Shown piece after piece: positions 1 through 56,732 of a stretch of 64,000 bases of DNA; position 1 is the first letter of the stretch, and every line of letters begins with the position of its first letter. The notes below the pieces were generated by a model. The model saw nothing but the letters and a program-made list of their open reading frames with translations. It had not been told where the DNA came from and did not search any database. The stretch covers positions 25,508 to 89,507 of the forward strand of contig CAZFJP010000003.1 in NCBI GenBank assembly GCA_964518965.1, written 5' to 3'. The DNA comes from an uncultured Candidatus Saccharibacteria bacterium (GTDB lineage Bacteria; Patescibacteriota; SOKK01). Made by a program: the position numbers and the translations under genes.

Positions 1-1358
1 CAACTTTAGCTCTTGATCCCGCCGCTAAAACTGTTAAAATTGGCGAAACCATCAGTTCCAAAGTGTTATTAAACACTGCTGGTCAGAATATCAGCAGCGT
101 GGAATTAAAAATCAATTATGATGCGGCAGCATTCTCGGTAACTGTTGATGACACTGGTTCTAAGTTCACTACTTTTGCGGAAAAAACTGCTAGTGGTGGT
201 GTTGCCAGAATTACTGCTGGTGCTAATCCTTATGTAAAGAGTGACAGTGCTTTGGTCGCTACTTTGAAATTAAAGGCGGTCAAGAATACTACTCCTGCCG
301 GTAACAATATTACTTTTGATTCTAGTTGTAAGATTTACAAACCAGGTCAATCTGCAGGTAGCAAAGTTGATATCTTCAAAGCAGGTTATGGCGCAAAATA
401 CACTGTTACCTCAACTGGTACTCAAGAAGGAAAAGGTCAATTAATCCTTTCTCCCGCAACCGCAAACCATAAGGTGAATGAAACTTTTCCGGTGAAGATT
501 TTAGTTAATACTGGTGGAGAAGAATGTAGCAGTGTTGCTGCTTACGTTGGTTTCAGTGATGAATATTTTGACGTGACGATTGATAAAGCAGGTTCTGATT
601 TCAGTACTTTTGCTCAAGCAGAAGTAAAAAATGGTACTGTCTCGATTAATGCTGGTGCTTCTACTCCCAAGAGTGGTAGCGACTTGCTCTTAGCTACGCT
701 AAAGTTGAAAGGTGTTAAAGAGACACTCTTAACTACGGCTAGAAGTGCTCAAGAAACTGGTAGTTTTATCTTTGATGAAACCAAGTCCAAGGTTTACAAG
801 TATGTTCAGGGCAGTCAACCGATTAATATTTTAGATTCGGTTACTAATGGTCAGTATGATATTACCACTACTGGTGGCGGTGGAACCTCTTTGCTTCCTC
901 CAACTGATTTAAAGGGTAAAGCTGGCAATACCATTATTGACTGGAGCTGGAAGCCAAACCCGAGTGGTCAGGCAGTTAAGGGTTATCGCATTTATGTGAG
1001 TACTGTTTCGGGGCATTATAGTGATGACGCAGTTGTAGTCACTGACGCTGTAAACGGCGCTGATGTTAAGGATGCTTTGAAATATCGTTCTACCAGTTTG
1101 ACTAACGGTAAAACTTACTATGCAATTACAAGGGCTTATGATGAAAAAGGTCGCTTAAGTGCTCCTTCTAATGAAGCAAAAGCAACTCCTACCGGCGGCG
1201 GGGGTGTTGAGAAACCAACTGAGCCAAGTACTGGTGGAATCTTTGAAATGCCGACCAGTTTAATTGCTACTGGTTTAGTCATTGGCACTGCGGTTTTGAT
1301 TGCGTTGGGTGTATCTATCTTAATCTGGATTTTTGCTCGTAAAAGAAAGAAACTCTAA
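1..1358 (+). CDS. Cohesin domain-containing cell-surface protein, 5'-partial. Reading frame 3 is open from the window start. It has two cohesin-like modules, an FN3 domain and a C-terminal sorting-signal-like tail.
   Basis: The frame stays open upstream of the GTG at 63, so the gene runs off the window. There are two ~140 aa modules with a cohesin-like pattern (ELKINYDAAAFSVTV...LVATLKLKAVK and YVGFSDEYFDVTI...LLATLKLKGVK). An FN3-like segment follows (WSWKPNPSGQAVKGYRIYVS...YYAITRAYDEKG). The C-terminus reads S-LIATG, then a hydrophobic stretch, then RKRKKL. Confidence 0.6.
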   Translation, partial: TLALDPAAKTVKIGETISSKVLLNTAGQNISSVELKINYDAAAFSVTVDDTGSKFTTFAEKTASGGVARITAGANPYVKSDSALVATLKLKAVKNTTPAGNNITFDSSCKIYKPGQSAGSKVDIFKAGYGAKYTVTSTGTQEGKGQLILSPATANHKVNETFPVKILVNTGGEECSSVAAYVGFSDEYFDVTIDKAGSDFSTFAQAEVKNGTVSINAGASTPKSGSDLLLATLKLKGVKETLLTTARSAQETGSFIFDETKSKVYKYVQGSQPINILDSVTNGQYDITTTGGGGTSLLPPTDLKGKAGNTIIDWSWKPNPSGQAVKGYRIYVSTVSGHYSDDAVVVTDAVNGADVKDALKYRSTSLTNGKTYYAITRAYDEKGRLSAPSNEAKATPTGGGGVEKPTEPSTGGIFEMPTSLIATGLVIGTAVLIALGVSILIWIFARKRKKL

Positions 1359-1491
1359 ATTCTAGAGTTTCTGAATACTTTCAAGAGGGGAAGTGGGGGG
1401 GTATTCCCCACCTCGCCAAAAACGAACTTTGACTCGTTGAGGCAGGATCAATCACTTTCCCTCTTTTTGTTTCTTTTGTTAGAACGACAGA

Positions 1492-3159
1492 ATGATGTGT
1501 AAAAATATGAAATTTGGGCAAATAATTATCTTAGGAATAATTTTCTTGATTTTAATTAGCGGCCTTTCGTTTTATTATTTTGTGATTTATCGTGCTAGGG
1601 CAGCTGAGAAGGTTACGGTTACTTTTGATTTGAATCAAAAAGAGTTCTGGTCTTCGCATGCTCAGCAAAAATACAACTATCTGCAGAAATTAGATCAGCA
1701 GAAAATTTATCCGGAGATTACTAAAGCGGTTCGGACAAAGATTGATCGTCTTTGGCAAGAAAAATTAATTAATGATAAACCAGGTAAAGAATTTTCTCAT
1801 CCGCTCAAGAAGGAAATGAAAGCGTATGTCACCGCGAAAGATATGGATTATCGGGATCGTTATATACCCGCGGATGCTTTTTCTGCGACTATTGATCAAC
1901 TTCTGGCGGTAAAGAAGATTGATAAATTTCCTGGTGACGAAGACGATTTTAAACAATATGGTGATAAAGGCAAAGAGAAAGCTGCGGAGGTTAAAAAGGA
2001 TACTTTTGAAATGGTGAGTCATCGTACTTTTAAGAAGCGAGAATGGACTTATAATCCTGCCCAACAAATTGCTAGCCAGGTACGAAATACCTACTGGAGT
2101 GGTAGTGCGCCTGCGGGGAAAGCAATAAATGCCTACACACAAGCGAATAATCTTATTTCCGGAGGTCTTATGACTGCTGCTACTGGTTTGTTTTCCCCTG
2201 CTTTCTTTATGGGGCAGGCAGGACAGTTTATTGATGCCATTATTAAGTATCTTACTGCACCCACCCAAGATTGTGAACTAACGATTTGGCGCATGTGCGC
2301 TTTAACTACTCTTAAAAATGATCTTCATGTTAAGGTAACTGGTTTAGATTCTTCCGGTCAATGGATTTTCGCTGGTAGTCTCTATGATCAAAATAAATTC
2401 CAAGGTCAGAATCGCATGTTTATTCCCAAAGCAGGAAATCCGCTTCAGGATTTAAACTTATCTTACACTGTTCCGGGTCGTAACTATGCAGTGAAATGGA
2501 ATGGTGAGCATCTCAAGGAAGGTAGCAGGAATATTGAAGAAGTTTTTGTTCCTGGTTTTACCGATCGTCAAATTGATTTGAATTCAATCAGAGTGAATGG
2601 CAAGTTGCTGAAAGATTCTGGCTTTGATGCTGAGATAGTTTTGGCTACTAATCATGTCGGCAATGGCCCTCAAAATGGTGGTGTAATTGCTTCTTCTCCT
2701 GCTCAGTGGAAATACGAATATAGCGCGGCTAATAAAAAATATTATGGCGCTTGGTTGAGTAAGGAAGTAAATGTTTGGATCAGGATAAAGAGGGGTAATT
2801 CTACTCTTTCCGTTGATAATTATATTGCTAAGGAAGCGGATTTTGATCGTAATGGGAAGGTAGATTATCTTGATTTGAAGCGTTGGATGTTGATGCGTGA
2901 TAATTTTGCGGAAGAAGAGAATAACAAAATTACTGATTTGAACCGCGGTGCTGATTTTAATCGGGATAATAAAATTGATGATGCAGATCTACGTTTATTA
3001 ATGAAAGTTTGGGGAAGTAAAAGTGGCGCAGTAACAGGGCCGGGATCTGGTTCGCAAAGTACTCCAAGTACTCCCGGTGGACAATCGGTACCGGTCTCTC
3101 CCGGCAAAGCAACATCTCCCTCACAAAATAATTCTTTTAAAACATTGCCTAGTCTTTAA
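1492..3159 (+). CDS. Membrane-anchored protein with a C-terminal type-I dockerin-like Ca-binding repeat pair and a Ser/Pro/Gly-rich tail
   Basis: An N-terminal TM helix is followed by a ~430 aa domain of unknown function. Two EF-hand-like dockerin repeats are present: DFDRNGKVDYLDLKRWM and DFNRDNKIDDADLRLLM. The tail is low-complexity (GSGSQSTPSTPGGQSVPVSPGKATSPS). Confidence 0.55.
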   Translation: MMCKNMKFGQIIILGIIFLILISGLSFYYFVIYRARAAEKVTVTFDLNQKEFWSSHAQQKYNYLQKLDQQKIYPEITKAVRTKIDRLWQEKLINDKPGKEFSHPLKKEMKAYVTAKDMDYRDRYIPADAFSATIDQLLAVKKIDKFPGDEDDFKQYGDKGKEKAAEVKKDTFEMVSHRTFKKREWTYNPAQQIASQVRNTYWSGSAPAGKAINAYTQANNLISGGLMTAATGLFSPAFFMGQAGQFIDAIIKYLTAPTQDCELTIWRMCALTTLKNDLHVKVTGLDSSGQWIFAGSLYDQNKFQGQNRMFIPKAGNPLQDLNLSYTVPGRNYAVKWNGEHLKEGSRNIEEVFVPGFTDRQIDLNSIRVNGKLLKDSGFDAEIVLATNHVGNGPQNGGVIASSPAQWKYEYSAANKKYYGAWLSKEVNVWIRIKRGNSTLSVDNYIAKEADFDRNGKVDYLDLKRWMLMRDNFAEEENNKITDLNRGADFNRDNKIDDADLRLLMKVWGSKSGAVTGPGSGSQSTPSTPGGQSVPVSPGKATSPSQNNSFKTLPSL

Positions 3160-3180
3160 TTTTTCTTAATCAAGACAAAA

Positions 3181-4131
3181 ATGAAAACTAAGAAAAGAAC
3201 GTGCAAAAGCATAAAGAAAAAGAATTTCCTTCTTCTGGTTATCGCCGGCTTGGTCCTAATTGTACTGGGAGGAAGTTTATTTTTCTTTATTAATCGTCAA
3301 ACTAAAGCCGCGACGTACAATCGTGAGTCCACTTATGATAATTACAGCTTTGCGGTAAACTGGAGCAAGAAAACTGGTCAGGCATTAGATAAGGGAGATA
3401 GTTGTTTCTTTATGGGTTTGCAGGCAATGAATTTTTGTCTCCGCGGTCAATTTAGTAAAGCTCGTGATTTATATTTGAAGTGCAAAGAGATTGATTTTTA
3501 TCGTCATCCGGATATCTATAAAGAGGCCCAAGGAAAGCCGGTTACTTATAATGGTACTTCCTTTGACATGATGGTAATTTGGGATTATGTCTGTACGAAG
3601 TGGCCACAGGTTGGTGCTCGCCCTAGTTTTCATACCCGTCAAAGTGCTTTCTGGGATGGTCGTTATCGCGCCAATTGGATGTTCAGTGCCGCGACAGTCA
3701 AGCCGCAAATTGACTATGCGATGGATCATCCCTATTTAGGCGATGACTTTTTCCGCAATCATCTTTTGATGCTGAAAATCGGCACCTCTCTTGCTTTAAA
3801 GGAAGATGCTTCTTTGAGAGCTAAGGCAGGTGATTATTTGAAGTTTTTGGAAGAGAAAACCAAAGTGAACGGAAAAGTGATTCCCAACTTATTCTTCCGT
3901 TATATTCTTGGCGTTTCGATCACAACTAATAATATTAATACTTGTTACAATTACTGGTTCCCTCAAGGTTACACTGGCAATTCTGTTTGCGAATGGATTT
4001 TTCAAAGAGATCCTAAAGTAATTGATCTCTATCGCAGTCGCAATGCCGATACCCAGTTTCATTTTGAGAAAGTGGATGGTAAGAAATTAACATTAAGTGA
4101 GCAGTTTATTAATTATTTGAGAAAAAAATAA
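3181..4131 (+). CDS. Hypothetical membrane-anchored protein (single N-terminal TM, Cys/Trp-rich ectodomain)
   Basis: Long ORF with an N-terminal TM helix, part of a co-directional tight cluster. No recognisable family. Confidence 0.45.
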   Translation: MKTKKRTCKSIKKKNFLLLVIAGLVLIVLGGSLFFFINRQTKAATYNRESTYDNYSFAVNWSKKTGQALDKGDSCFFMGLQAMNFCLRGQFSKARDLYLKCKEIDFYRHPDIYKEAQGKPVTYNGTSFDMMVIWDYVCTKWPQVGARPSFHTRQSAFWDGRYRANWMFSAATVKPQIDYAMDHPYLGDDFFRNHLLMLKIGTSLALKEDASLRAKAGDYLKFLEEKTKVNGKVIPNLFFRYILGVSITTNNINTCYNYWFPQGYTGNSVCEWIFQRDPKVIDLYRSRNADTQFHFEKVDGKKLTLSEQFINYLRKK

Positions 4132-4140
4132 TTAAAATTT

Positions 4141-4578
4141 ATGGAATCTAGCCAGCGAAAGAGAATTCGCGAATTGAAAAAACGTAGAAATAATTGGAGC
4201 AAAATGCCGTTTTGGCTTGCGGGAGTAATGTTTTTATTCGGCAGTTTATGGTTTAGCTATCAGTATTTCATTACTCCGGTGACCAAAGCAGCTTCCGAAG
4301 CAAAAAAACCAAAAGATTTTAAGGTTCAGGTTGTTGATCGTAAAGTGCAGTTGAGTTGGAACACCCCACAAACTACTAAAGATTTAGTTAAATATCGCGT
4401 TGAACGTTCGCTGAATATTCCTTCTGGCGATTACTCCAAATGGGTGAAAGAAACTAATCTCACTAGTTTAGTTGATGAGTCAGTTTCACAAGGGAAAACT
4501 TATTGGTATCGTATCTTTGCAGTTTATCAAAATAAAATTTCTGATCCGGTTGGACCGATTCCAGCAATTATTGAGTAA
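4141..4578 (+). CDS. Membrane-anchored fibronectin type III domain protein
   Basis: N-terminal TM helix. FN3-like pattern: KDFKVQVVDRKVQLSWNTP...GKTYWYRIFAVY. Confidence 0.5.
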   Translation: MESSQRKRIRELKKRRNNWSKMPFWLAGVMFLFGSLWFSYQYFITPVTKAASEAKKPKDFKVQVVDRKVQLSWNTPQTTKDLVKYRVERSLNIPSGDYSKWVKETNLTSLVDESVSQGKTYWYRIFAVYQNKISDPVGPIPAIIE

Positions 4579-4597
4579 TTAAATTTTAAGATCAAAT

Positions 4598-4963
4598 ATG
4601 CAAACAAACAATCAATCCAAATTTAAACAATTCTTAGTCAGACGCGCCAAACGCAGTTGGATTATTGCTATTGGTGTGGTAATTGCTTTAGTTGTCGGTG
4701 GTGTTTATGTTGCTCCCGACCTTGTTCGTCGCGTGAAACAAAGTTTTGCTGCGGAAAAGAATATCCAGCACACGGACTGGAGCGGTGGACCAAGAACTGC
4801 CGGTGAATCTTTAATTATCACTGATCCCTACACTAACAAATACGATACTAGCTATAACATTGATACTACTAGTGGCAAGGAGGGAATCAAACTAAAAACC
4901 TTGGATCAAAGAGGCAATACTGGCGATACTAGTAATCGGTTGCAACTTCCTCCTATAGATTAA
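4598..4963 (+). CDS. Small hypothetical membrane-anchored protein
   Basis: ORF with an N-terminal TM helix (WIIAIGVVIALVVGGVYVA), in an operon-like arrangement. Confidence 0.4.
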   Translation: MQTNNQSKFKQFLVRRAKRSWIIAIGVVIALVVGGVYVAPDLVRRVKQSFAAEKNIQHTDWSGGPRTAGESLIITDPYTNKYDTSYNIDTTSGKEGIKLKTLDQRGNTGDTSNRLQLPPID

Positions 4964-4979
4964 TTCTTTCTTATTATTT

Positions 4980-7085
4980 ATGGCGAAGAGATTGCGTTTA
5001 AACACAACTTTTTGGGTAGGGGCAGTGCTTTGTGTTTTAGGGGTCGGAGTGCTGTTGTTTTTGTTTTCCCAGCGACCGAAGGAGACCAAGGCTTCACAGG
5101 CAACGTGGTTGCAAGAGAGCTGGTCGGGGGGAGGGAACAGTCCATTCTTCCGTGAGGAGAGTAAGGACAAGTACTGGACTAAGGATGATACTGTGGATGA
5201 TCGCGAGGGCATTACACTTAAATTTAAGAAACATCAATCGAAGGAATCTTCTAACTCTCCTAACAAACCTGCAGGTAAAGAGAATGAGAGTGGCAGTGGG
5301 GCGGAGAATGGAGGAGATCGGGATGGCACTCAAACCGAACGGTTAGTTAAAGGATCGCTAATTTCATCGGTACTAGATTCTCAAAGGCTGGTTTCAGTTT
5401 TAAATGGAAGAATGGAAGGTAGTTTCAGTTCCGCGGCGGGAAACGGAGCTCATCTTTATCTTCAGAGTGGAGATTTAAGTAAGGAAACAACAAAAGAAGG
5501 TGAGATTAATATTAGTGATATCAGGTGGGGTAAGTGGGTGAGTGTTAAAGAGGTAGCAAAAGGTTCGCTCACTGGTCGCTTCCTTCGCTATCGGGTTGAT
5601 TTGGAAATGATTAGAGGGAGTGAGAACTCTCCGCGAGTTACCCGGGTTATTGTTAGTTATAAACTCTTTTCCCAGACCAAGATAGAAATTGATCCAGCGC
5701 AGTCACAAGTTACTGCGGAGAGTCCGGTGTTGATAGGTACTTCTAGTAATATTGTCATTCAACTAAAGAATGGGTCAGGTGAAGTTGTGGTAGTGCCAGA
5801 AGAGTGGTTAGAGGTGGAAGTTTCGGGATTAAGTGGTTGTCGAGTTACTCAGCTGCGCTTGGGGGCGGACCAAGGTGTTGAGAAGAAGAGCAACTCGATT
5901 TATAAGGCAAGTGTAGTTTCTAAAATCCCGGGAGTGGCAAAGATTCAAGTGATAGTTACTTCTGGTGGAAAGGGAACTGGTAGTTCCTTGAGGACTTCTC
6001 TTGAGGAAAGTGGAGGAACTGTTGCTAATCTAAATCAGATCATTTTAAATGACCAGCCGAAAATTGAGTTTGTTGACCATACAAAAGGTGATCAATATGT
6101 TAGTGAGGGATACATCAGCTCCTTAATCTTTGATGCAGGGAGTGAGGTAAAATGGAGCAAGCTTAATTACGAAGCTAATTCTCCTGAAGGGACGGCAGTT
6201 GAAGTGGGGGTAAGAGTGGGTAATGATCCAAATACTTTAGGAAAATTTCAAAAGGTCAGTGCGGGCCATCATCTTGGTCTGCGAGGGCGCTACTTTCAAT
6301 ATCATGTCACTCTCACTACAAGGAACAATTCAGTAACCCCGGTTTTTAAGAAAATTATTGTTTCCTACAGTTCTTTAAGGAAGGGAGGAAAGGAAATTCC
6401 TACTCCTTTGAACCAACAATATAATAGCAGTAGTGTTGATCCCGCTCGATCTCGTGTGACTGCAACTACTCCTCACCGTGCAGGAATTGAACGCAGTCAG
6501 GTAATCATTACTTTGAAGGATAATAACAATGTTCCAATTAAGGATTTTCCTGCGGCACGTTTTGTGCTAAGCACTGAACCGAAATTTGGTACGATTTTCT
6601 ATGACCAAGCAAAGCGAACTGATAGTGATGGCAGGATTATTTATCAATGTACTTCTACCACTGTTTCCCGTAAAGTTTTAACAGTCAAAATTAAAGATGA
6701 ATTAGGAAAGGAAATTTTAACTTTGCATGATCATCCCATAATTGATTTTGTAGATGTTAATGATAAGGATGTTTATCTAAAGAGTGGCGAGTTGAATTCA
6801 CTGATCTATGATGCAGGAGGTATCGTCGGCTGGAACAAGATTAGCTGGATCGCGGATGTACCCAAGGGAACGACAATGAGGGTAATGGTTCTCTTTGGAA
6901 ATGATCGTGAGTTTATTCAAAAAAATAACTGGGATTTGAGCTTGTGGAGAGAGGTAAAAAATGGTCAGAATCTACGTTTAAAGGCAAGATATTTTCAATA
7001 CAAGATCTTGTTTAATAATGATAATCCTTATTTGACACCGGTATTAAAAGAAATTAAGGTGAATTACCAGAACTTGGAGAGCTAA
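4980..7085 (+). CDS. Large membrane-anchored surface protein with three internal ~110 aa repeats
   Basis: N-terminal TM helix. The repeats end in RYFQY(H/K)V.L....TPV.K.I.VSY-like motifs, seen three times. A hairpin terminator follows. Confidence 0.5.
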   Translation: MAKRLRLNTTFWVGAVLCVLGVGVLLFLFSQRPKETKASQATWLQESWSGGGNSPFFREESKDKYWTKDDTVDDREGITLKFKKHQSKESSNSPNKPAGKENESGSGAENGGDRDGTQTERLVKGSLISSVLDSQRLVSVLNGRMEGSFSSAAGNGAHLYLQSGDLSKETTKEGEINISDIRWGKWVSVKEVAKGSLTGRFLRYRVDLEMIRGSENSPRVTRVIVSYKLFSQTKIEIDPAQSQVTAESPVLIGTSSNIVIQLKNGSGEVVVVPEEWLEVEVSGLSGCRVTQLRLGADQGVEKKSNSIYKASVVSKIPGVAKIQVIVTSGGKGTGSSLRTSLEESGGTVANLNQIILNDQPKIEFVDHTKGDQYVSEGYISSLIFDAGSEVKWSKLNYEANSPEGTAVEVGVRVGNDPNTLGKFQKVSAGHHLGLRGRYFQYHVTLTTRNNSVTPVFKKIIVSYSSLRKGGKEIPTPLNQQYNSSSVDPARSRVTATTPHRAGIERSQVIITLKDNNNVPIKDFPAARFVLSTEPKFGTIFYDQAKRTDSDGRIIYQCTSTTVSRKVLTVKIKDELGKEILTLHDHPIIDFVDVNDKDVYLKSGELNSLIYDAGGIVGWNKISWIADVPKGTTMRVMVLFGNDREFIQKNNWDLSLWREVKNGQNLRLKARYFQYKILFNNDNPYLTPVLKEIKVNYQNLES

Positions 7086-7111
7086 CCTTTTAAATTTGAA
7101 TTTTGTGTCTT

Positions 7112-7140
7112 AAAAAGGTGGTTCTAATCCACCTTTTTAA
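7112..7140 (+). terminator. Rho-independent terminator after the surface-protein gene
   Basis: AGGTGG-ttctaat-CCACCT hairpin followed by TTTTT. Confidence 0.6.
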
Positions 7141-7227
7141 GTTTGTTGCTTAAAGGTATAATGTAAATGTAATTTGCCAAAGTAGCAGTATTATTAACTC
7201 ACTTAGTTTGTTTTTTTGTTTTGATTA

Positions 7228-7408: not shown

Positions 7409-7496
7409 GCCGAAGTGGCGGAATTGGTAGACGCGCGGCGTTCAGAGCGCCGTCCCGCTTAGCGGGGTGGAGGTTCAAATCCTCTCTTCGGCACCA
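7409..7496 (+). tRNA. tRNA-Leu(CAG), type II with long variable arm, CCA encoded
   Basis: GCCGAAG acceptor pairs with CTTCGGC. Anticodon loop TTCAGAG. T-arm GGAGGTTCAAATCCTCT. Confidence 0.85.
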
Positions 7497-7609
7497 TTTT
7501 AGATGCAAAATCCAAAACGTAAAACGCAAAAGCTGTGGTATAATTTGTAGGAGAGCCTTGTTCAGAAGGTTACTTTGTGTTTTGCCTTTTGAATTTTGAG
7601 TTTAATTTT

Positions 7610-7696
7610 GGGGATGTGGCGGAATTGGTAGACGCGCAGGCTTGAGGGGCTTGTGGCCGTAAGGCCATGAGAGTTCAACTCTCTCCATCCCCACCA
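7610..7696 (+). tRNA. tRNA-Leu(GAG), type II, CCA encoded
   Basis: GGGGATG acceptor pairs with CATCCCC. Anticodon loop TTGAGGG. Long variable arm. T-arm GAGAGTTCAACTCTCTC. Confidence 0.8.
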
Positions 7697-7797
7697 GTCT
7701 AAATTTCATCATTGGGATTTAATCAGAAGTTAATTAACAAGATTCTATAGACTGGATTTAAATATTTTTGATTAGTATAAATGATGAAATTTAGGCT

Positions 7798-7872
7798 GGC
7801 GTCGTAGCCAAGTGGTAAGGCAGCGGTTTGCAAAACCGTTATGCGCGAGTTCGAATCTCGCCGACGCCTCCA
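7798..7872 (+). tRNA. tRNA-Cys(GCA), CCA encoded
   Basis: GGCGTCG pairs with CGACGCC. Anticodon loop TTGCAAA. T-arm CGCGAGTTCGAATCTCGC. Discriminator U. Confidence 0.85.
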
Positions 7873-7908
7873 AAAAGAAAGTTGGAGATTAAAAGTTAAA
7901 GGATAAAA

Positions 7909-8505
7909 GTGGAAATCATCAAGCTTCTACAGGAAAATATCCGAGAGGTTGCTTGTGAGGTTGTTTCGCGGCTGAAAGACAATCAGGTTGGAGTAATTCC
8001 AAGTGATACGAGTTATGGGATGGCAACCTTGATTCGCAGGGAGAATATTGATCACTTGTTAAAGATTAAAGGCAGATCAAGGAGGAAACCAATCTCGGTT
8101 TTTGTTTCTTCCCTTGAGTTTCTGGATGAGCTCGCGGTAGTTGATTATAATCAAAGGCAGTTTATCAAGAACCGTTTAAACAAATCACATACCTTTGTTC
8201 TGGAATTGGAATCGCAATTTAAAGATCAGTACAAGGATATTGCTCCCGACGGGAAAATTGGTATTAGGATTGTTGGTGTTCCTTTAATTCGAGAGATACT
8301 TAAAAAACTGAATGAACCAATCACTGCTACTAGTGCAAATCTCAGTAACCATACTAATTGTTACTCGCTCAAAGGATTTCTCAATCAGTTTGAAGATAAG
8401 GCAGTACAACCAGATTTCTTCATTGATGCTGGCAAACTGCCTTATTGCAGTCCTAGTACTGTGATTGATTTAACCACGAGACCCTATAGAATTATTCGCA
8501 AATAG
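7909..8505 (+). CDS. tsaC: L-threonylcarbamoyladenylate synthase TsaC/YrdC family
   Basis: YrdC-like motifs (GVIPSDTSYGMA...). Size of 198 aa is typical. Confidence 0.65.
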   Translation: MEIIKLLQENIREVACEVVSRLKDNQVGVIPSDTSYGMATLIRRENIDHLLKIKGRSRRKPISVFVSSLEFLDELAVVDYNQRQFIKNRLNKSHTFVLELESQFKDQYKDIAPDGKIGIRIVGVPLIREILKKLNEPITATSANLSNHTNCYSLKGFLNQFEDKAVQPDFFIDAGKLPYCSPSTVIDLTTRPYRIIRK

Positions 8506-8596
8506 AGTAAGTCATGCCATACGACAGAACACTCTTTGTTGGTGAATTATTGCAACAACGGATAGTTTTATCGATGTCCGATTTAGATTTAGTCAC

Positions 8597-8713
8597 GGGT
8601 TCGTAGCTCAGTTCCCGCCAGAGGCATGCTCCTGAGGCGCATTCGCCCTCTGGTGAAGGTCCGTCTTTGGCGGAGGTTACCTGCCTGCCGGCAGGCAGGG
8701 AGTGCCTCGTTTT
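8597..8713 (+). pseudogene. Duplicated tRNA-Val 5' fragment (nt 1-17) plus a 100 nt structured GC-rich insert, immediately upstream of the intact tRNA-Val(TAC)
   Basis: GGGTTCGTAGCTCAGTT occurs at 8597-8613 and again at 8714-8730. The intervening 100 nt contain two hairpins: CCGCCAGAGG...CTTTGGCGG, and the perfect palindrome CCTGCCTGCCGGCAGGCAGG. Confidence 0.6.
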
Positions 8714-8790
8714 GGGTTCGTAGCTCAGTTGGTTAGAGCGCCTCGTTTACACCGAGGAGGTCAGAGGTTCAACTCCTCTCGAACCCACCA
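8714..8790 (+). tRNA. tRNA-Val(TAC), CCA encoded
   Basis: GGGTTCG pairs with CGAACCC. Anticodon loop TTTACAC. T-arm AGAGGTTCAACTCCTCT. Confidence 0.85.
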
Positions 8791-8926
8791 TGCTCTGCAG
8801 AGCAAACTTAAAAATTAGAACGTAAAAGTTAAAAGAGAAATTCCGGTTTATGCTATAATAGATACGATTTTGTGAGATATTGCTGCATTGTTTTAAGTTT
8901 TACATTTTACGTTTTAATTTTGAAAT

Positions 8927-9002
8927 GCCGAGATAGCTCAGTTGGTAGAGCACGGCTCTGAAAAAGCCGGTGTCCCCAGTTCGATCCTGGGTCTCGGCAC
9001 CA
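8927..9002 (+). tRNA. tRNA-Phe(GAA), CCA encoded
   Basis: GCCGAGA pairs with TCTCGGC. Anticodon loop CTGAAAA. T-arm CCCAGTTCGATCCTGGG. Confidence 0.85.
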
Positions 9003-9101
9003 CTAAACAACTTAAAACTTAAAAATTAAAACGTAAAAGCTAAATCCAAAAGACCCGAATTTACTTTTTAAGTTTTACGTTTTAACTTTTGAGTTGTTTA
9101 C

Positions 9102-9176
9102 GCGGGAGTAGTTCAGTAGTAGAACGCTTCCTTGCCAAGGAAGAGGTCGCGGGTGCGAATCCCGTCTCCCGCTCCA
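9102..9176 (+). tRNA. tRNA-Gly(GCC), CCA encoded
   Basis: GCGGGAG pairs with CTCCCGC. Anticodon loop TTGCCAA. T-arm GCGGGTGCGAATCCCGT. Confidence 0.85.
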
Positions 9177-9214
9177 ACTAAAACAAATTAAAATAACTTC
9201 TATGTTATTTACAA

Positions 9215-9302
9215 GCCGATGTGGCGGAATGGTAGACGCGGCAGACTTAAAATCTGCTGGGCTTAATCGCCCATGTCGGTTCGACTCCGACCATCGGCAC
9301 CA
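9215..9302 (+). tRNA. tRNA-Leu(TAA), type II, CCA encoded
   Basis: GCCGATG pairs with CATCGGC. Anticodon loop CTTAAAA. Long variable arm. T-arm GTCGGTTCGACTCCGAC. Confidence 0.85.
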
Positions 9303-9426: not shown

Positions 9427-10602
9427 ATGTATAAGAAACGTCTTTTCCTTGTTCTTCTGACTTCGCTTTTCTTGGTCAGTGTCCCTCTTGCTACTTTGGC
9501 AGCGACTTTCAGAACAGGCAATAATGTTACAGTTGGTAGAGATGAAGTTATTAATGGAGATTTGTATGTATCAGGAGGTTCCCTCAATATTGAGGGGTTT
9601 GTAAAGGGTGATGTCTTTGTAGCAGGGCAAACCATTGATGTTGACCATGAGGTTTCTGGAGACTTGTTTGCTGCAGGAACAAATGTTAACATTCGTAGTA
9701 CTATCTGGGATGATGTGAGAGTTTGTGGATCTAATGTTCAACTAGATGCTGGGGTTGGTGATGACATCTTTGCAGTAGGAGCAACAGTTGAGTGCACCGA
9801 AAAATCACTGATTTCGGGTAGTGCATTTTTATCTGGTGGAAATGTGAAAGTATTTGGTGATGTAAAGGGCGATTTAAATGTTTCCGCAACAGCGTTGACT
9901 ATTGAAGGAGTAATCAAGGGTAATGTTAAAGCAACTACCGATAAACTAGTTTTAGGGAAGAATGCTAAAATTGAAGGTGACTTGGAATATACTAGTAAAA
10001 ATGATCTAGAAAAAGCAGAGGGAGCTTTAGTTGTTGGAAAAACTACTCGTCATGAGTCAAAAACTAATGGTAAAATTGCTTGGCTGGGTGGGATTGCCTT
10101 GACAAGCGGTTATTTTCTTTGGAAGTTTGTTTGGTGGGTTGCCTCGTTATTGCTGCTTTTAGTTTTAATTTGGTTGATGCCTAATTTCAGTGTTAGTGTC
10201 GGTAACTATTTAAATAAAAATCCGTGGAAGAGTTTAGGATTTGGGTTACTTGCTCTCATTGTTATTCCAGTTATTGCGGTAATTTTCTGTGTTTTAATTC
10301 TCGGTTTGCCTCTCGGCATTATTATGCTCTTGGCTTATATTGTAATGATTATGATTGCTAAGGCACTGTTCGGTCTTTGGCTTGGTCGCAAGATTCTCTG
10401 GTTGTTTAATAAAAACAAGCGTGGTTATAAACCGCATTTTGTCTGGGCGGCAATCCTTGGTACTTTTGTAGCGACAATTTTATTCATGTTGCCGTTTATC
10501 GGCTGGTTAATCAAGTGGGTGGCGCTCTGGCTGATGTTCGGCGCGTTGATTATTACAACTAAGAATTTGATGAAGAGTTTTAAACGCAAAGGAACGTTAT
10601 AA
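9427..10602 (+). CDS. Membrane protein with a signal peptide, a bactofilin-like beta-helical repeat ectodomain and four C-terminal TM helices
   Basis: Signal peptide is present. Repeats follow a VxGDxxVxGxxxxIxG pattern (INGDLYVSGGSLNIEGFVKGDVFVAGQTIDVDHEVSGDLFAAG...). The C-terminus is hydrophobic. Confidence 0.45.
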   Translation: MYKKRLFLVLLTSLFLVSVPLATLAATFRTGNNVTVGRDEVINGDLYVSGGSLNIEGFVKGDVFVAGQTIDVDHEVSGDLFAAGTNVNIRSTIWDDVRVCGSNVQLDAGVGDDIFAVGATVECTEKSLISGSAFLSGGNVKVFGDVKGDLNVSATALTIEGVIKGNVKATTDKLVLGKNAKIEGDLEYTSKNDLEKAEGALVVGKTTRHESKTNGKIAWLGGIALTSGYFLWKFVWWVASLLLLLVLIWLMPNFSVSVGNYLNKNPWKSLGFGLLALIVIPVIAVIFCVLILGLPLGIIMLLAYIVMIMIAKALFGLWLGRKILWLFNKNKRGYKPHFVWAAILGTFVATILFMLPFIGWLIKWVALWLMFGALIITTKNLMKSFKRKGTL

Positions 10603-10613
10603 AACCTTATTAG

Positions 10614-10647
10614 AAAAGCCGCTTCTAAATCTGGGGGCGGCTTTTTA
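10614..10647 (+). terminator. Rho-independent terminator
   Basis: AAAGCCGC...GCGGCTTT hairpin plus TTT. Confidence 0.55.
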
Positions 10648-10702
10648 GTTGAAAAGTTCACCAACTCCTGCTACCCTAGAAATGTCTATTTAAAGCGGAA
10701 AT

Positions 10703-11551
10703 ATGCTCAAAGCTTTGAAAATCTTGTTGACTTTGTTGCTTCTTTTTATCATTGGAGCAGCTTTTGCAATTACCTGGATGATTTATTTCAAAGATTCGGG
10801 TAATCAGGGGGAGAGAGAGACTAAGTTTCCTGAAGTTCAGGAGGATAAGGGTGATTTTCGTTTTGCGGTTTGTGGTGATCCGCATAGTAACTGGAAGGTT
10901 TATAAAAAAGTTTTCCAAAGTGCTCAAAAGAGAAAAGTGAGCTTTTTGATTAATGTTGGTGATCTTACCAGAGTTGGTGCAGAATCAGAATTTTATGAAG
11001 GGAAACGATTAATGGCTGATTTTCCTTATAAAACATACTTGGTGATGGGTGGTCATGACATGACTGGGGAAGGGAGACGCTGGTTTCGGAAGTACTTTGG
11101 TAAGGATCATCAAAGTTTTAATCAGGGCAAAGCGCATTTCGTCGTTTTAAATAATGCCGATCAAAAAGAGGGGATAAGTAAAGATCAGTTGGATTGGTTG
11201 GAGAAAGATTTAGAAGAGAATAACCTGCCATTAAAGTTTGTTTTTGTTCATCAGCCCCTGGCATTTCCTTATGCTGATCCCGAAGAGATAGGTTATTTGA
11301 CAGAAAAATCCCAAGAGGCAGAACAGGATTTGGTGGAAATTCTGAAAAGGAATCACGTGAATGTTGTTTTTGCTGGTCATCTTCATTCTTATCTTACTTA
11401 TCAGTTTGGCGATATTTCTGCTATAATAACAGGGGGAGCGGGTGGACCAATCTACAGTATGCCCTTTTTAGCTGATACTCCCTACCACTATGTTTTAGTG
11501 ACAGTTAAAGGTACTGAGTATTATCCGGAGAAGATTGAAATTAATAACTAA
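10703..11551 (+). CDS. Membrane-anchored metallophosphoesterase (calcineurin-like)
   Basis: Motifs GDPH, NVGDLT, GGHD and a GHLH-like element. N-terminal TM helix. Confidence 0.65.
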   Translation: MLKALKILLTLLLLFIIGAAFAITWMIYFKDSGNQGERETKFPEVQEDKGDFRFAVCGDPHSNWKVYKKVFQSAQKRKVSFLINVGDLTRVGAESEFYEGKRLMADFPYKTYLVMGGHDMTGEGRRWFRKYFGKDHQSFNQGKAHFVVLNNADQKEGISKDQLDWLEKDLEENNLPLKFVFVHQPLAFPYADPEEIGYLTEKSQEAEQDLVEILKRNHVNVVFAGHLHSYLTYQFGDISAIITGGAGGPIYSMPFLADTPYHYVLVTVKGTEYYPEKIEINN

Positions 11552-11627
11552 TGGCTAATGCCTGCCGGTAGACAGGATTGATTAAAAAACATTTCCATTA
11601 TTCATTATCCATTAAATATTATTTTTT

Positions 11628-12095
11628 ATGTTTTCATCTCATTCTGAAAAACCAACCTTTTCCGAGAAGATTAAACAGGAACTGCAAAGAGAAGAAAAAC
11701 CCCAGACAGGTTCTTATACTCTGTTGCTACTTTTAGTTTTACTGCTTATTGCTTTAGTCTTCTTTTTTGTGGCGCTGATTAAGAATTGTACCACCGAGAA
11801 AGTAGCTGAAAGTGAAACAACTACTCCCGCAGCAGAACAATCTACTACGCCAAATAATCAAAATGAAGAGGCGATTGAAAATTCTGCTGAGGAAGAGATA
11901 ACTCCCGAAACTTCCAATTCTGGTCAGACCTATACGATTCAAGCTGGGGATACGCTCTTTGAAATTGGACAGAAGTTTGGTATAGATTGGAAAAAGATTG
12001 CCAAGGTTAATAGTCTTGAAGCTCCCTATAATCTCACTGTTGGGAAAACCTTGGTTATTCCGCCAAAGGAAAGCAGTGGTGGAACTACGCGGTAG
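11628..12095 (+). CDS. LysM domain-containing membrane-anchored protein
   Basis: C-terminal LysM: YTIQAGDTLFEIGQKFGIDWKKIAKVNSL...LTVGKTLVIP. N-terminal TM helix. Confidence 0.7.
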   Translation: MFSSHSEKPTFSEKIKQELQREEKPQTGSYTLLLLLVLLLIALVFFFVALIKNCTTEKVAESETTTPAAEQSTTPNNQNEEAIENSAEEEITPETSNSGQTYTIQAGDTLFEIGQKFGIDWKKIAKVNSLEAPYNLTVGKTLVIPPKESSGGTTR

Positions 12096-16013: not shown

Positions 16014-16017
16014 TCTG

Positions 16018-16399
16018 GTGGAGGTGGGGGGAATTGAACCCCCGTCCAAGAGAGTAAACTAACAATATCTACAAGCTTAGTTATTTTAGTTTGATTCAGA
16101 TTGAAAACTTATCCCGCAGACGGGACCCCGCTATGCAGGGAAAAATAACAAAAAATTTTCAATCCTATTCCTAAAGATTTAACTGATTAACAAGGAAAAA
16201 TTAATCAGCGATCCCATGTTTGACGTCTTTTTCCTTCTTATGGGAGAAGAAGGAAAGACGGCTGTCACGCTAAATTAGGCAACAGCGGGTGCAAAATTTG
16301 TTCTTGCACTTAAAAATTGAAAGTTGAGTTTACGAGCCCACTTTCACACTCGGCTTGCATTGTTAATTTACAAAACTCCTGTCGAAACCTGTCACCCCC
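16018..16399 (-). ncRNA. ssrA: tmRNA (SsrA)
   Basis: The minus-strand 5' end GGGGGTGACAGGTTTCGACAGG pairs with the 3' end ...GGACGGGGGTTCAATTCCCCCCACCTCCACCA. These are tRNA-Ala-like acceptor and T-arms with a G3-U70 pair. A putative tag reading frame GCAAGAACAAATTTTGCACCCGCTGTTGCCTAA (A-R-T-N-F-A-P-A-V-A-stop) lies inside. Confidence 0.8.
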
Positions 16400-40625: not shown

Positions 40626-43600
40626 ATGAAAAACTTATTCAAAAAAGCAAGTAGAACCTTAGTCGGAATGGCTCTGGTGCTTTTAGTTAGTCAAATCATT
40701 GCACCGGCGCTTTCTACTCACGCTGATGGTTTTACTCCTGGTTTTAATACGAAACCGGGTGAAGCGGATTTTTATAAAATCCGCAATGTTACCAAAGGAA
40801 CAAGTTTTGGTAATAGTGTTCAGGCAGATCCCAAAGATGTGCTTGAATTTTCTATTTACTTTCATAACTCTGTTCCTTATTCTGTTGCTCGTGACTCTCG
40901 TGTCATGGCTAACTTTCCGGCTCAAACTAAGAACGGTAAAGTAACTACTACCGGATTTTTGGGTAGCAAAGATGCCCAGCCAGCAGAGATCCAGGATACT
41001 GCGGAAATTACTGCAGACGGTCAATATAATTTGACCCATGTTGCCGGCTCTACCTGGATGAAAAAGGGTGACGGCAATGGCAACTATCCGGAAACAAGAC
41101 CCCTTCCTAATGGTAATCAAATTACCCAGGAACGCGTCAGCATTGGCGATGTTGTTGGTGGTAATTTGGAATTCCAAGGTTGGGTTTATTTCCGTATGCA
41201 AGTAGGTCCTGCCGAACAGCCTCAAGAAAATTATTCTGTTAACATTGAACCCGACCGCAATGGTCAGGATTATGCCGGTCGTGAAGTAGCTTACAATCAT
41301 ACTATTACCAACACTGGTAATGTTACCGACAGCTACAATATTTCTGCGCAATCAAGCAAAGGTTGGAAGGTACGTCTTTCTAAAGACAGCACCAACCCGA
41401 CTGCTCCTAATCAAAGCCGTGACTTAACGGTTTGGGTTACTATTCCTTACGGTGCTTCTGCTAATGATGTAGATAGTACTGTGATTACGGTTACCTCTCG
41501 AACTCGCGGTAATGTTTCCGACCGGGTTACTGATCGCACCACTGTTTTAGAGCGTCAGGTTGAAGAGGCAGAGTTAGTATTGTCAGAAAAAGTAGACAAG
41601 ACAGAGGTTCAGCGCGATAATCCAAACGAATCTGCTCGCAATATTACCTATACAATGACTGTTACTAATATCGGTAATAAAGCTGCGGTGAACACTGTAT
41701 TGGTTTCTGATTTAGGTGATAACTTGGAAGGTAATGCTAACTTCATTAGTTACGGCGGTGGTCAACGTGATGGCAATAATTTAATTTATCGCATTGGTAG
41801 AATTGGGCCGGGTCAGACGGTAGAGAAGTGGTTTATTGCTGATGTCCGTTCTGATTTAGCGGACGGTTTCCGTTTAAGAAATCGCTCTTTGGTTTCTTAT
41901 GATACCGAAGGCAATGGTATTGCAGAACCGATTAATCCGGTTGAGATCTTAGATGCCACTGCTTGGAGTGAATATGTTTATACAATTGTTCGTGGTTCTG
42001 GTTTAGATTTAGCGGTTACTGACAATCGCACTGTTGCTGAACCGGGTGATACTTTGAACTATAAGCTTACTTTAAGCAATACGGGTTCTGGCCAAGGTTA
42101 TCGGGTGATTGTGAAGAATCAGGTCCCGAACTACTTAGAGAATGTTCGCAATATTAGCGATAGTGGTATCTATGATGCTTCCGCACGTGAAATTACATGG
42201 GTACCTCGGGTTATTGGTGGCAATGGTAGTCATACCTTTACCTTTAGTGCTGACATTGAAGCGGGTACTCCTCAAGGTACCGTGCTGGTTGACACTGCAA
42301 CTGCTTCTGCTAATAATGTTCCTTCAGTTTCTGCTTCTGATTCTACTTTGGTTCAATCACAAGCCAAGTTGAATCTTGTTGAAGCAGTAGATAAAGCGGA
42401 TGTTCAAAGAGATGATTCAACTCCTGGTGCCAACGAAGTTACTTATACTTTGACTTTATCCAACAATGGTTCTGGTCCTGCCAGTCATGTCATTGTCCGC
42501 TCTGATTTAACGAGCATTTTGCAAAGTGCGACTATTATTGATACTGGCGGCGGTACTATTAGTGGCAATGAATTAAGTTATGCGCCAGTTGATCTTAATG
42601 TTGGTGATGCAGTTACCTTTACTTTCCGTGCGCAGGTCAATGCTTCGGCAGCTGACGGTGCAGTGATGACTAATCAATCTACGGCGGAATACGAAGTTGG
42701 TTTTCCGGAGGGTGTTAGTTTGGCTGTGGTTCGTAGCAATACGGTTAATACTACTATTCATGCGCCGTTCTTGACTTTAACCAAAACTGATAATAAGGAT
42801 ACAACTCAGCCGGGTGATACTTCTAATTATGAAGTGAGAATTGTTAATACCGGTTCTGGTAGTGCCTATGAAGTGAATGTCGTGGATTACTTGCCGCAAT
42901 ATCTGGAAAATATTACCGATATTTCTGACGGAGGTGTCTACGATGCTACTACCCATACCATTACTTGGAGCAATTTAACTGTTGATGGTACTGGTGGTGC
43001 GGATGCAGTAGTCCCTCAAGTCATGAAGGTCCTAACCTTTGGTGGCGAGGTCTCTACAAGCGCTTCTCACGACACAATCTTATTGAACCGCGCAGTGTTA
43101 ACTGCTCGCAATCTTGCCCAATTAGAAGCCACCGATGAAACTCGTGTAGTTGCGGAACCGGTTCTTGATTTAGCCAAAACTGTTGATGTTAATGGTACTG
43201 ATCGCGCTACGGCTCGTCCTGGCGATACCTTAACCTATACTATTACTTATGGTAATAGCGGATTGGGTGCTGCAGGCAATGTGGTCTTGCAAGATCGTTT
43301 GCCGCAATATGTCACTTATGTTTCCGGTAGTGCTACCAATGGTGGTACTTACAACGGCTTGAATCGCATGATTACTTGGAATTTAGGTAATTTGGCGGTC
43401 GGCGATATTGGTTCGGTTTCTTTTCAAGTAACTGTTAATAGTGATGTTCCGCATAATTCTACAATTCGTAACCGTGCCGTTATTGTAGCCGATGGCGGAT
43501 TCAGTAACAAAGCATTTGCAGATATTTTAGCGGAACAATTGCCGGCTCTCTTTGTTCAAAAGAGCGTAGATAAAACTAATACCAAACCGGGTGATATTCT

Positions 43601-44134: not shown

Positions 44135-44339
44135 GAATACATAGGATAAAATCAAAAAGCAAAAATCAAAATGCAAAGGTAAATGTAAAAGGCAGGATTA
44201 AAGTATTATTAGAGTTGAAGAAAGTAAAACGAGAGAATCCCAATTTTTGCATTTTGTTTTCAATTTTGCTTTTTGCCTTTTGCGTTTTGCTTTTTAGCAA
44301 TGCTTATGTTATAATGTCTTGTGCTTAATAATTAAAATA

Positions 44340-56499: not shown

Positions 56500-56626
56500 C
56501 TCTGAAGTTAGTTAATATAGATTATACCAAAAAATAGAAGTCCTAAAATTAAGCGGCTCCTTTTGGATTTTGCATTTTTCGTTTTGAATTTATTTTGTCC
56601 ATCTAATCTGTAAGCCGAGTTCTGTT

Positions 56627-56732
56627 CCCCGCCTAAGTTTCATCGTTGAACTAAATCAAGACTCACTAGAATTGTCAGAACTACTGAACTGATAATGTCT
56701 TGATGGATGTCAATGATGAAATTTAGGCGGGG
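56627..56732. repeat. Palindrome of the 'TTTCATCATTGA...AATCAAGAC' family (copy C), immediately 3' of the RNase P RNA
   Basis: ccccgcctaagtttcatcgttgaactaaatcaagac ... gtcttgatggatgtcaatgatgaaatttaggcgggg. Confidence 0.6.

Follow-up and report, generated by a model that had tools for sequence, protein, structure and literature searches.

Results

A cohesin gene cluster cut by the edge of the window

The DNA analyzed here is a stretch of 64,000 nucleotides (the window) from a contig of an uncultured Candidatus Saccharibacteria bacterium, and it begins with six genes, g1 to g6, that encode predicted surface proteins. Together with further genes upstream of the window, they belong to a cluster in which cohesin modules are combined with C-terminal dockerin-type tails, and we consider it probable that this cluster specifies a lineage-restricted, multi-tier and enzyme-free, i.e., non-cellulosomal, cohesin–dockerin surface assembly in a bacterium belonging to the Candidate Phyla Radiation (CPR). 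The features of the cluster are listed in Table 1.

The window starts within g1, whose first 43 codons lie upstream of it. The missing part could be read from a 24.4-kb JGI (Joint Genome Institute) metagenome contig, L002, on which a 554-residue form of g2 is on record, and which is identical to the window across the entire 8,653-nt overlap, with L002 position 8507 corresponding to window position 1. According to this contig, a further 8.2 kb or more of the cluster precedes the window, and four more cohesin proteins (U1, U3, U5, and U6) are encoded there; the upstream genes share the strand of g1–g6 and are separated by gaps of 25-41 nt. The gaps between g2 and g6 amount to 9-21 nt, and that between g1 and g2 to 133 nt. 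In total, the cluster covers about 15.3 kb with at least 11 genes and a 49-codon fragment, and the first 7.1 kb of the window represent its downstream part. In all variants recovered, g6 is the last gene of the cluster. A preliminary description of the window had spoken of a six-gene operon, and this has to be revised, as the unit is larger, is cut by the window edge, and contains a conserved terminator-like hairpin between g1 and g2; its further statement that more same-strand genes follow g2 with minimal gaps is correct for g3–g6.

Table 1. Features of the cohesin gene cluster; positions are those of the window unless the contig L002 is named.
Feature	Position	Strand	Description
U0	L002 56-196, upstream of U1	same as g1	final 46 residues only: LPTSG, hydrophobic stretch, SRRK
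U1	L002, upstream of window	same as g1	209 aa; Cohesin 29.6 bits
U2	L002, upstream of window	same as g1	955 aa; large domain, FN3-like repeats, weak Dockerin_1 tail (15.8 bits)
U3	L002 3864-5501	same as g1	545 aa; cohesin-like module, two FN3s, duplicated acidic tail
49-codon fragment	L002 5527-5676	same as g1	U1-type N-terminal hydrophobic segment and 'GDFSFA' motif only
U5	L002 5711-7156	same as g1	481 aa; cohesin-like module, two FN3s, duplicated acidic tail
U6	L002 7198-8340	same as g1	380 aa; Cohesin 42.2 bits, fn3 30.1 bits, duplicated acidic tail
g1	3-1358	+	open reading frame (ORF) open at the 5' edge of the window; residues 44-494 of a 494-aa protein inside the window
g1 cohesin module 1	3-431	+	Pfam Cohesin 35.5 bits; AlphaFold2; Foldseek
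g1 cohesin module 2	432-887	+	BLASTP to module 1
g1 FN3-like module	897-1175	+	Pfam fn3 19 bits (cutoff 25)
g1 C-terminal anchor/possible sorting signal	1221-1355	+	EPSTGGIFEMPTSLIATG, hydrophobic stretch, then RKRKKL
Hairpin and T-tract between g1 and g2	hairpin 1383-1465, T-tract 1466-1480	+	T-tract TTTTTGTTTCTTTTG; fold z=-5.15
g2	1492-3159	+	ORF; 550-aa database form if started at 1507
g2 ectodomain	1603-2811	+	aa 38-440
g2 paired Ca2+-loop module, dockerin-like/EF-hand-like	2839-3006	+	aa 450-505; loops and following helices
g3	3181-4131	+	ORF, 316 aa
g4	4141-4578	+	ORF, 145 aa
g5	4598-4963	+	ORF, 121 aa
g6	4980-7085	+	ORF, 701 aa
Intrinsic-terminator-like hairpin	7109-7141	+	13-bp stem and T-run just after g6, closing the cluster

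Cohesin modules and the C-terminus of g1

The full-length g1 protein (L002 8380-9864) contains exactly two cohesin modules. Module 1 clearly exceeds the curated cutoff of the Pfam family Cohesin (PF00963; 35.5 versus 24.1 bits). Module 2 alone received no Pfam call, and it is 35% identical to module 1 in BLASTP (E=3e-23; E=1e-25 in the comparison of all modules); in the ortholog from locus L086, Pfam detects two Cohesin stretches that match both modules (46.7 bits for the whole protein). For structure prediction, AlphaFold2 was run with a module-level alignment of eight rows, in which g1 and three orthologs were each represented by their two cohesin modules. The resulting model of module 1 is all-beta, with a predicted local distance difference test score (pLDDT) of 88.5 and a predicted template modeling score (pTM) of 0.85, and in a Foldseek search against the PDB the first 22 ranks were all cohesins (E 9e-6 to 3.5e-3, template modeling scores 0.5-0.69). 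These ranks include cellulosomal cohesins whose structures were determined together with bound dockerins (2vn5, 6kgf, 5m2o, 5nrm), the non-cellulosomal cohesin of Archaeoglobus fulgidus (2xdh, rank 14), and the cohesin–FN3 double module of Clostridium perfringens (2w1n). Profile and predicted fold thus agree in identifying module 1 as a cohesin, and its model superposes on solved cohesins rather than on unrelated folds. The preliminary description of g1 as a protein with cohesins, FN3, and a wall or membrane anchor therefore stands for the cohesins (by profile, fold, and homology) and for the C-terminal anchor (a hydrophobic stretch followed by RKRKK), whereas the FN3 module is seen only below the threshold; at the paralogous position, U6 and U5 reach 30-32 bits.

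The C-terminal region is the most conserved part of g1, with 71-82% identity across orthologs, compared with 37-44% for the cohesins in the distant ones. It follows the unusually conserved pattern EP[SG]TGG..F.MP.SL.ATG, hydrophobic stretch, RKRKK, which is LPXTG-like, yet not a canonical LPXTG motif, and no ORF with the sortase motif TLxTC was found in the 64-kb window. As the best conserved region of the protein, it suggests a dedicated signal that is recognized for sorting and is not simply a membrane helix. Among the other proteins of the cluster, only the truncated upstream protein U0 was seen to end in a hydrophobic segment and basic residues, and its ending (L002 56-196) resembles that of g1 (EETGG...LPTSG, hydrophobic stretch, SRRK).

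Cohesin proteins upstream of the window

Five proteins of the cluster (U1, U3, U5, U6, and g1) together carry six cohesin modules, which BLASTP recognizes as homologous to one another. The closest pair is U5–U6 (42% identity, E=4e-39), the remaining pairs range from 1e-4 to 1e-13, and the cohesin of U1 is linked to module 2 of g1 solely via other modules. The modules of U3 and U5 and module 2 of g1 are tied to the cohesin family by BLASTP with E=1e-9 to 4e-39.

The tail of U6 is 39% identical to the dockerin encoded at L086, in an alignment that spans both repeats (E=3e-11), and it also matches the long-loop tail encoded at L087 (E=1e-17). Since its tail is homologous to these two dockerins, U6 is a cohesin–FN3–dockerin protein and is thus laid out like an adaptor scaffoldin. 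In NCBIfam, none of the eight cluster proteins searched had a match above the threshold; the one of note was a weak match of U6 to dockerin_GC (E=0.028). A comparison by hhalign of the U6-type and U3/U5-type tails with the g2-type modules was dropped (18-19 aligned columns, 9-15% probability). U3 and U5 share another duplicated tail (DIAH..G.AVYGRD.KV.YFDYAFLMNV.W, twice) that is conserved in three lineages and may be a distinct docking module. With respect to the 49-codon fragment on L002, a similar ORF of 52 codons is found at L005 1563-1721, so that two lineages have such short ORFs, at differing positions of the cluster; these may be remnants of genes or real small membrane proteins.

Dockerin-type tails in related lineages

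Relatives of the cluster were found at few loci. The orthologs of g1 are P0006 (71% identity), P0007 (44%), P0008 (42%), and the L086 protein (40%); the database search for g1 returned four matches, one of which is a fragment of g1 itself, a metagenome scan added a single locus (L086), and there was no relative among GTDB species representatives. For g6, there are two database relatives (P0011, 56%; P0012, 46%) and an ortholog at L086 (43%).

The gene order is nevertheless well preserved among these lineages. Locus L001, which encodes a 78% identical ortholog of g2, has the order U3'-U5'-U6'-g1'-g2'-g3' as in the lineage of the window. In L003/L004 (g1 44% identical), U2'-U3'-U5'-U6'-g1' is followed by a gene that we term g4-long in place of g2, and L087, which continues the genome of L003/L004 beyond the contig break, adds g4-long'-g5'-g6'. 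L086 (g1 40% identical) has U6'-g1'-g4-long'-g5'-g6'. The order U2-U3-U5-U6-g1-(dockerin protein)-g5-g6 is thus kept at 40-48% protein identity. Genes g2 and g3 were found only in the lineage of the window and in its closest relative L001, and they represent an insertion specific to this lineage. In three lineages, the product of the gene directly after the two-cohesin gene g1 has a dockerin-type module at its C-terminus. What is conserved is therefore not the adjacency of g1 and g2 itself, the putative cognate pair that the preliminary description had emphasized, but the encoding of some dockerin-bearing protein right after g1.

The clearest dockerin of the family is found in the g4-long protein of L086. 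Pfam Dockerin_1 (PF00404; curated cutoff 22.9 bits) scores 37.2 bits with the whole protein and 48.5 bits with the tail, EF-hand_1 scores 17, and solved type I dockerins in the PDB are matched over the full length (E=2e-5), so that this tail reads as a textbook dockerin. The g4-long tail of L087 is 36% identical to it (E=4e-19); it carries a 10-residue insertion within each Ca2+ loop and received no Pfam dockerin call. The U6-type tail of L086 is free of insertions and reaches 21.8 bits over the full Dockerin_1 model. By homology to the Pfam-verified dockerins, the tails of L087 and U6 can also be classified as dockerins, and they define a long-loop repeat of this lineage (GD.SG.E..GQ.P.PDG.IDL.DF.TW..YW; L087 1-564 and the C-terminus of U6) with 6-10 extra residues in the Ca2+ loop.

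The paired Ca2+ loops of g2

In g2, an N-terminal hydrophobic segment is followed by an ectodomain of about 400 residues, paired Ca2+ loops, and a Ser/Pro/Gly-rich tail. The ectodomain had no match in Pfam, NCBIfam, or PDB sequences. A word-indexed database search with g2 found itself and one ortholog with 78% identity, and when 1.84 billion representatives were searched exhaustively with HMMER, the only matches were itself and the proteins P0009 (42%) and P0010 (34%). Both of these distant homologs of the ectodomain end in a dockerin tail of the type seen in this lineage, and the g2-type ectodomain thus behaves like a piece of cargo that is always joined to a docking module.

The two loops that follow the ectodomain, DFDRNGKVDYLD and DFNRDNKIDDAD, are canonical 12-residue Ca2+ loops at a spacing of 38 residues. 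They fit the pattern of Asp or Asn at positions 1, 3, 5, 9, and 12, and both have an Asp at position 12, where Asp rather than Glu is usual in dockerins. The helices after the loops are weakly predicted by AlphaFold2. With Dockerin_1, the whole g2 protein scores 17.9 bits, which is below the cutoff, and an isolated segment of 92 residues scores 26.4 bits, which is above it.

Proteins g3 to g6

All 11 cluster proteins begin with an N-terminal hydrophobic segment of 19-24 residues; in g2–g6, a basic stretch precedes 19-23 hydrophobic residues, in agreement with the preliminary description of membrane-anchored ectodomain proteins, as far as this can be predicted. An [STAG]-x-A motif recurs 4-11 residues past these segments. 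In g3, a Cys-rich ectodomain follows, and searches of PDB sequences with g3 and g6 gave nothing significant. In g4, the segment is followed by one FN3-like module (fn3 19.6 bits). As g4 is 28% identical to the N-terminal part of the L003 g4-long protein, it is best regarded as a short form of the dockerin-ended g4-long proteins of the relatives. In g5, there is a small head domain with the motif 'DWSGG', and the L086 ortholog is 64% identical. In g6, a 'WSGGG' head is followed by three copies of an unassigned beta-type module of about 100 residues that alternate with two Ig-like modules; when the modules were searched separately in Pfam, one Ig-like module had a sub-threshold match to Big_1/Invasin_D3, and there was nothing else. 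This composition is compatible with an adhesin. The heads of g5 (4598-4963) and g6 (4980-5240) have in common the motif [DS]WSGG after the hydrophobic segment, then about 25 residues and 'EGI.LK'; this head matches no Pfam family and is conserved in the L086 orthologs.

A hairpin between g1 and g2

The gap between g1 and g2 contains a predicted terminator- or attenuator-like element, a hairpin followed by a T-tract. It had been missed by a simple terminator scan because of its large loop, which harbors an additional nested hairpin. Stem and T-tract are conserved at L001 5244-5300, where the form is simpler, a clean 19-bp hairpin with a U-tract (z=-4.1). As only 11-26 nt—depending on the start codon chosen—separate the T-tract from the start of g2, expression of g2–g6 by read-through of a leaky terminator is more likely than expression from an own promoter. 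By such read-through, the upstream scaffold genes would be expressed at a higher dose than the downstream genes, and the hairpin may thus set the ratio of the two.

Other genes of the window and the host lineage

Beyond the terminator-like hairpin after g6, tRNA genes begin at position 7409, followed by genes of the Sua5, bactofilin, metallophosphoesterase, and LysM families. The tRNA genes at 7409-9302 number seven (Leu x3, Cys, Val, Phe, Gly) and are split by the Sua5/YciO/YrdC-family gene at 7909-8505, and genes for tmRNA and RNase P RNA are found elsewhere in the window, at 16016-16399 (-) and 56595-57091 (-). After g6', L087 has genes of the bactofilin/DUF8173, Metallophos, and LysM families, and the same three families occur in the same order at 9427-12095 of the window. 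The guanine-cytosine (GC) content is about 0.40 and even across the whole cluster. An origin from a phage or another mobile element was rejected in view of this uniform GC content and of the tRNA genes and gene families downstream of g6, three of the latter being in the same order in L087.

The assignment to the CPR, already made in the preliminary description, was supported by SecD, whose best matches among 185,579 species representatives are CPR/Patescibacteria metagenome-assembled genomes (Kazan, Doudna-, Gottesman-, Daviesbacteria, and others) at 46-60% identity, i.e., not above 60%; a few of the matching records are labeled with other taxonomy.

Glycosyltransferases and a polyprenyl glycosylphosphotransferase are encoded elsewhere in the window, together with some large proteins. 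A protein of 943 residues (44319-47150, +) combines an N-acetylmuramoyl-L-alanine amidase domain (Amidase_2, 71 bits) with FN3, and it could be a large surface peptidoglycan hydrolase with the host wall as a possible target; it had no dockerin-type loops in a window-wide scan for canonical loop pairs. A DUF11-repeat protein of 1,149 residues (40626-44075, +) has an isopeptide-type domain and, at its end, LTKTG followed by hydrophobic and then basic residues. Its gene lies within a stretch at 36-42 kb in which the GC content is raised (0.46-0.51, compared with about 0.39 elsewhere); this stretch may be an island of surface-protein genes gained by horizontal transfer. A third protein, of 1,080 residues (59473-62715, +), has a weak similarity to PglX-type adenine methyltransferases of BREX systems (E=4e-12, far under the family cutoff) and may be a methyltransferase of a defense system.

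Discussion

The gene cluster at the start of the window was described in a preliminary way as encoding a non-cellulosomal surface assembly, and this remains the best reading, now that further cohesin proteins have been found upstream, that U6 combines cohesin, FN3, and dockerin, and that dockerin genes follow g1 in the relatives. In the assembly that we propose, the proteins would be exported through their N-terminal hydrophobic segments, and g1 would be held at the envelope by its C-terminal anchor, thereby presenting two cohesins. These cohesins would capture dockerin partners in a Ca2+-dependent manner, namely the adaptor U6, which is encoded upstream, and the cargo proteins g2 or g4-long, which are encoded downstream. 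The cohesins of U6, and perhaps those of U5, U3, and U1, would in turn recruit further tails, such as those of U2 and of the U3/U5 type. The outcome would be a branched, multi-tier, and FN3-spaced surface structure that shows variable orphan ectodomains, with g5 and g6 as conserved accessory surface proteins that lack a dockerin. If the N-terminal segments are cleaved, only g1 would be fixed to the envelope, and the others would be held there by cohesin–dockerin contacts.

A number of observations weigh against this assembly. On the isolated segment of g2, EF-hand_1 and EF-hand_7 (26.6 bits each) are level with Dockerin_1. In searches of PDB sequences with the g2 module (phmmer and profile), calmodulins ranked first, although not significantly (E 0.006-0.07), and no dockerin was among the top 60, whereas the L086 dockerin, used as a positive control, finds dockerins with E=2e-5. 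The AlphaFold2 model of full-length g2, based on an alignment of four rows, has a mean pLDDT of 40 and of about 25 in the Ca2+-loop module. Concerning the upstream proteins, the U2 tail reaches no more than 15.8 bits with Dockerin_1, and the U3/U5 tails have neither a Pfam match nor a significant link to dockerins in BLASTP (E 0.1-1), their profile matching only EF-hand loops (E 0.004-0.03; hhalign probability 15%). Furthermore, if the N-terminal segments of around 22 residues are uncleaved anchors, all proteins would already be tethered, and their capture by a scaffold would be less necessary. Finally, the whole family is very narrow, encompassing roughly five related metagenomic lineages, so that selection for a general function in the CPR cannot be argued.

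As to g2, the textbook dockerin of the preliminary description has therefore to be qualified. The paired canonical loops after an ectodomain without matches are real, and the Dockerin_1 search is positive with the isolated segment and negative with the whole protein; in view of the equal EF-hand scores and the preference of the PDB searches for calmodulin, the module is not a textbook case, and by sequence it is inseparable from an EF-hand pair. The dockerin assignment thus depends partly on the context: a docking role appears favored because the module is C-terminal on an exported protein, because of the Asp at loop position 12, and because of the genomic surroundings.

These ambiguities could also mean that the cluster is an island of surface-protein genes without any cohesin–dockerin pairing, in which the cohesins serve as stalks or spacers, the Ca2+ loops are EF-hand-type sites, and the proteins act singly via their own N-terminal anchors. 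The N-terminal segments of all 11 proteins are indeed long enough for membrane anchors, and the g2 module, which is nearer to calmodulin than to solved dockerins, as well as the U3/U5 tails with their EF-hand loop matches, would fit such a reading, as would the fact that cohesins and dockerins outside cellulosomes often occur without a partner. We nevertheless regard it as unlikely. The family includes genuine dockerins, with 37-48 bits, far lower EF-hand scores, and full-length matches to dockerins in the PDB, and they are C-terminal and encoded beside the two-cohesin gene in three lineages. The Asp instead of Glu at position 12 of both g2 loops also speaks against it, and the co-clustering of six cohesins with at least three dockerin-type tails in conserved synteny would be hard to explain without an interaction.

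The question of whether the proposed cohesin–dockerin assembly holds enzymes is answered as far as recognizable families are concerned: in Pfam and NCBIfam searches, neither the cluster proteins nor the other large ORFs of the window that were tested matched a glycoside hydrolase, polysaccharide lyase, carbohydrate esterase, or carbohydrate-binding module (CBM) family, which agrees with the earlier remark that there are no obvious genes for carbohydrate-active enzymes (CAZymes) in the neighborhood. One may still think of a complex that scaffolds enzymes against the envelope of a host or prey, in which the orphan ectodomains of g2 and U2, and perhaps that of g3, would be novel hydrolases. Such a complex would share the anchor/adaptor/cargo architecture with multi-tier cellulosomes, the cargo position behind g1 has varied in evolution, CPR bacteria are host-dependent, and the window encodes the Amidase_2 and FN3 surface protein of 943 residues. 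This amidase, however, is encoded 37 kb away and lacks dockerin-type loops in the window-wide scan, and no catalytic domain was detected in the cluster members by searches of Pfam, NCBIfam, and PDB sequences, which makes the idea quite improbable in our view. It is more likely that the assembly serves a display for adhesion or host interaction than the degradation of polysaccharides, with adhesion being a guess. The role in episymbiotic attachment that the preliminary description had in mind is a plausible inference.

A purely structural role has also to be considered, in which cohesin–dockerin links in cis between tethered proteins would produce an S-layer-like lattice or a sheath. The many paralogous cohesin–FN3 proteins of similar length, each with a membrane-proximal N-terminal segment, are reminiscent of such a layer, and no SLH (S-layer homology) or classical S-layer domains were found in the cluster, so that another lattice builder is conceivable. 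However, if the layer were essential, related CPR genomes should have it as well, whereas the system is confined to a very narrow lineage, and the variable cargo slot with its orphan domains is less easily reconciled with a lattice than with interaction or display. We therefore think that an envelope layer is very unlikely.

The proposed assembly can also be extended to a self-assembling multi-tier 'adhesosome', a surface organelle not described before that would be anchored by g1 and display rapidly exchanged orphan ectodomains (g2, U2, g4-long) for host recognition or attachment, with the 6-10-residue insertions marking a lineage-specific dockerin subtype and the U3/U5-type tail serving as an additional, novel docking module for which particular cohesins would be specific. 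We hold this full version to be doubtful.

With regard to the working principle, the closest known systems are the multi-tier cellulosomes of Acetivibrio/Clostridium thermocellum and A. cellulolyticus and the sca cluster of Ruminococcus flavefaciens. As in these systems, there is an anchor with more than one cohesin, there are adaptors with cohesin and dockerin, cargo dockerins are C-terminal, and the scaffold genes lie on the same strand; moreover, the predicted fold of the g1 cohesin matches solved cellulosomal cohesins, and the dockerins of the family match type I dockerins. The cluster differs from cellulosomes in that no glycoside hydrolase, CBM, or SLH was found, in that the cargo consists of orphan ectodomains, and in that the host belongs to the CPR. 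Further differences are the long N-terminal hydrophobic segments, the FN3 after each cohesin unit, the anchoring by a C-terminal hydrophobic and basic region, and the insertions of 6-10 residues inside the Ca2+ loops of some dockerin repeats. A cohesin scaffoldin and the adaptor and anchor tiers of a cellulosome are thus present, and the cluster is not a cellulosome, because the defining dockerin-bearing CAZymes and the scaffoldin CBM are absent from the searched cluster.

Other uses of cohesins and dockerins have been described. In Clostridium perfringens (2w1n, 2jh2, 2o4e, 2vo8), a cohesin likewise directly precedes an FN3. The C. perfringens modules form part of large glycoside hydrolases and toxins that are secreted, and they connect these enzymes in pairs, as in toxin/GH84 complexes, whereas the cluster described here has dedicated scaffold and adaptor proteins and no recognizable enzymes. 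As reportedly noted by Peer and colleagues in 2009, non-cellulosomal cohesins and dockerins occur across bacteria and archaea (cited in PMC10066038), often unpaired, and their function is mostly not established. In the amylosome of Ruminococcus bromii, cohesin–dockerin contacts are used for a substrate other than cellulose, some proteins have both types of modules, and the cargo consists of GH13 amylases (PMC4611034); this is also a reuse beyond cellulose, with the difference that our cluster shows no CAZyme. The cohesins of Methanococcus were proposed to be hydrogenase anchors (PMC11452385). Most of the other non-cellulosomal cases are isolated modules or single pairs, whereas we find a syntenic cluster with multiple anchor, adaptor, and cargo components. 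As for episymbiotic or ultra-small bacteria, an essential protein of Southlakia, SEML1_0315, has a dockerin domain (PMC10633639), and a giant ORF of an Omnitrophota bacterium has nine dockerins and was proposed to be an adhesin (PMC10066038). According to the excerpts of these two reports, the dockerins are likewise on envelope proteins with a speculated role in host interaction, and the excerpts mention dockerins only, with no cohesin partner or scaffold, whereas here the cohesins, adaptors, and anchor are co-encoded.

In the literature searched, no cohesin–dockerin scaffold cluster was described for the CPR. As a non-cellulosomal use of cohesins and dockerins is already established, the novelty would be a full anchor/adaptor/cargo cluster without recognized enzymes, its presence in the CPR, and its combination of insertion-bearing dockerins with a second type of tail. 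As the system appears to be restricted to a few metagenomic lineages that are related to each other, it tells what CPR cells can do and does not represent general CPR practice. To our knowledge, the physical engagement of hosts by CPR bacteria is largely unexplained beyond type IV pili, and pairs of cohesins and dockerins are modular and among the strongest protein–protein connectors known. Our analysis offers candidates for further studies: specific pairs of cohesins and tails, orphan cargo domains as candidates for host binding, and an insertion-bearing dockerin for protein engineers. If the proposed assembly is true, an ultra-small symbiont would employ the building principle of the cellulosome for another purpose, namely surface display or attachment.

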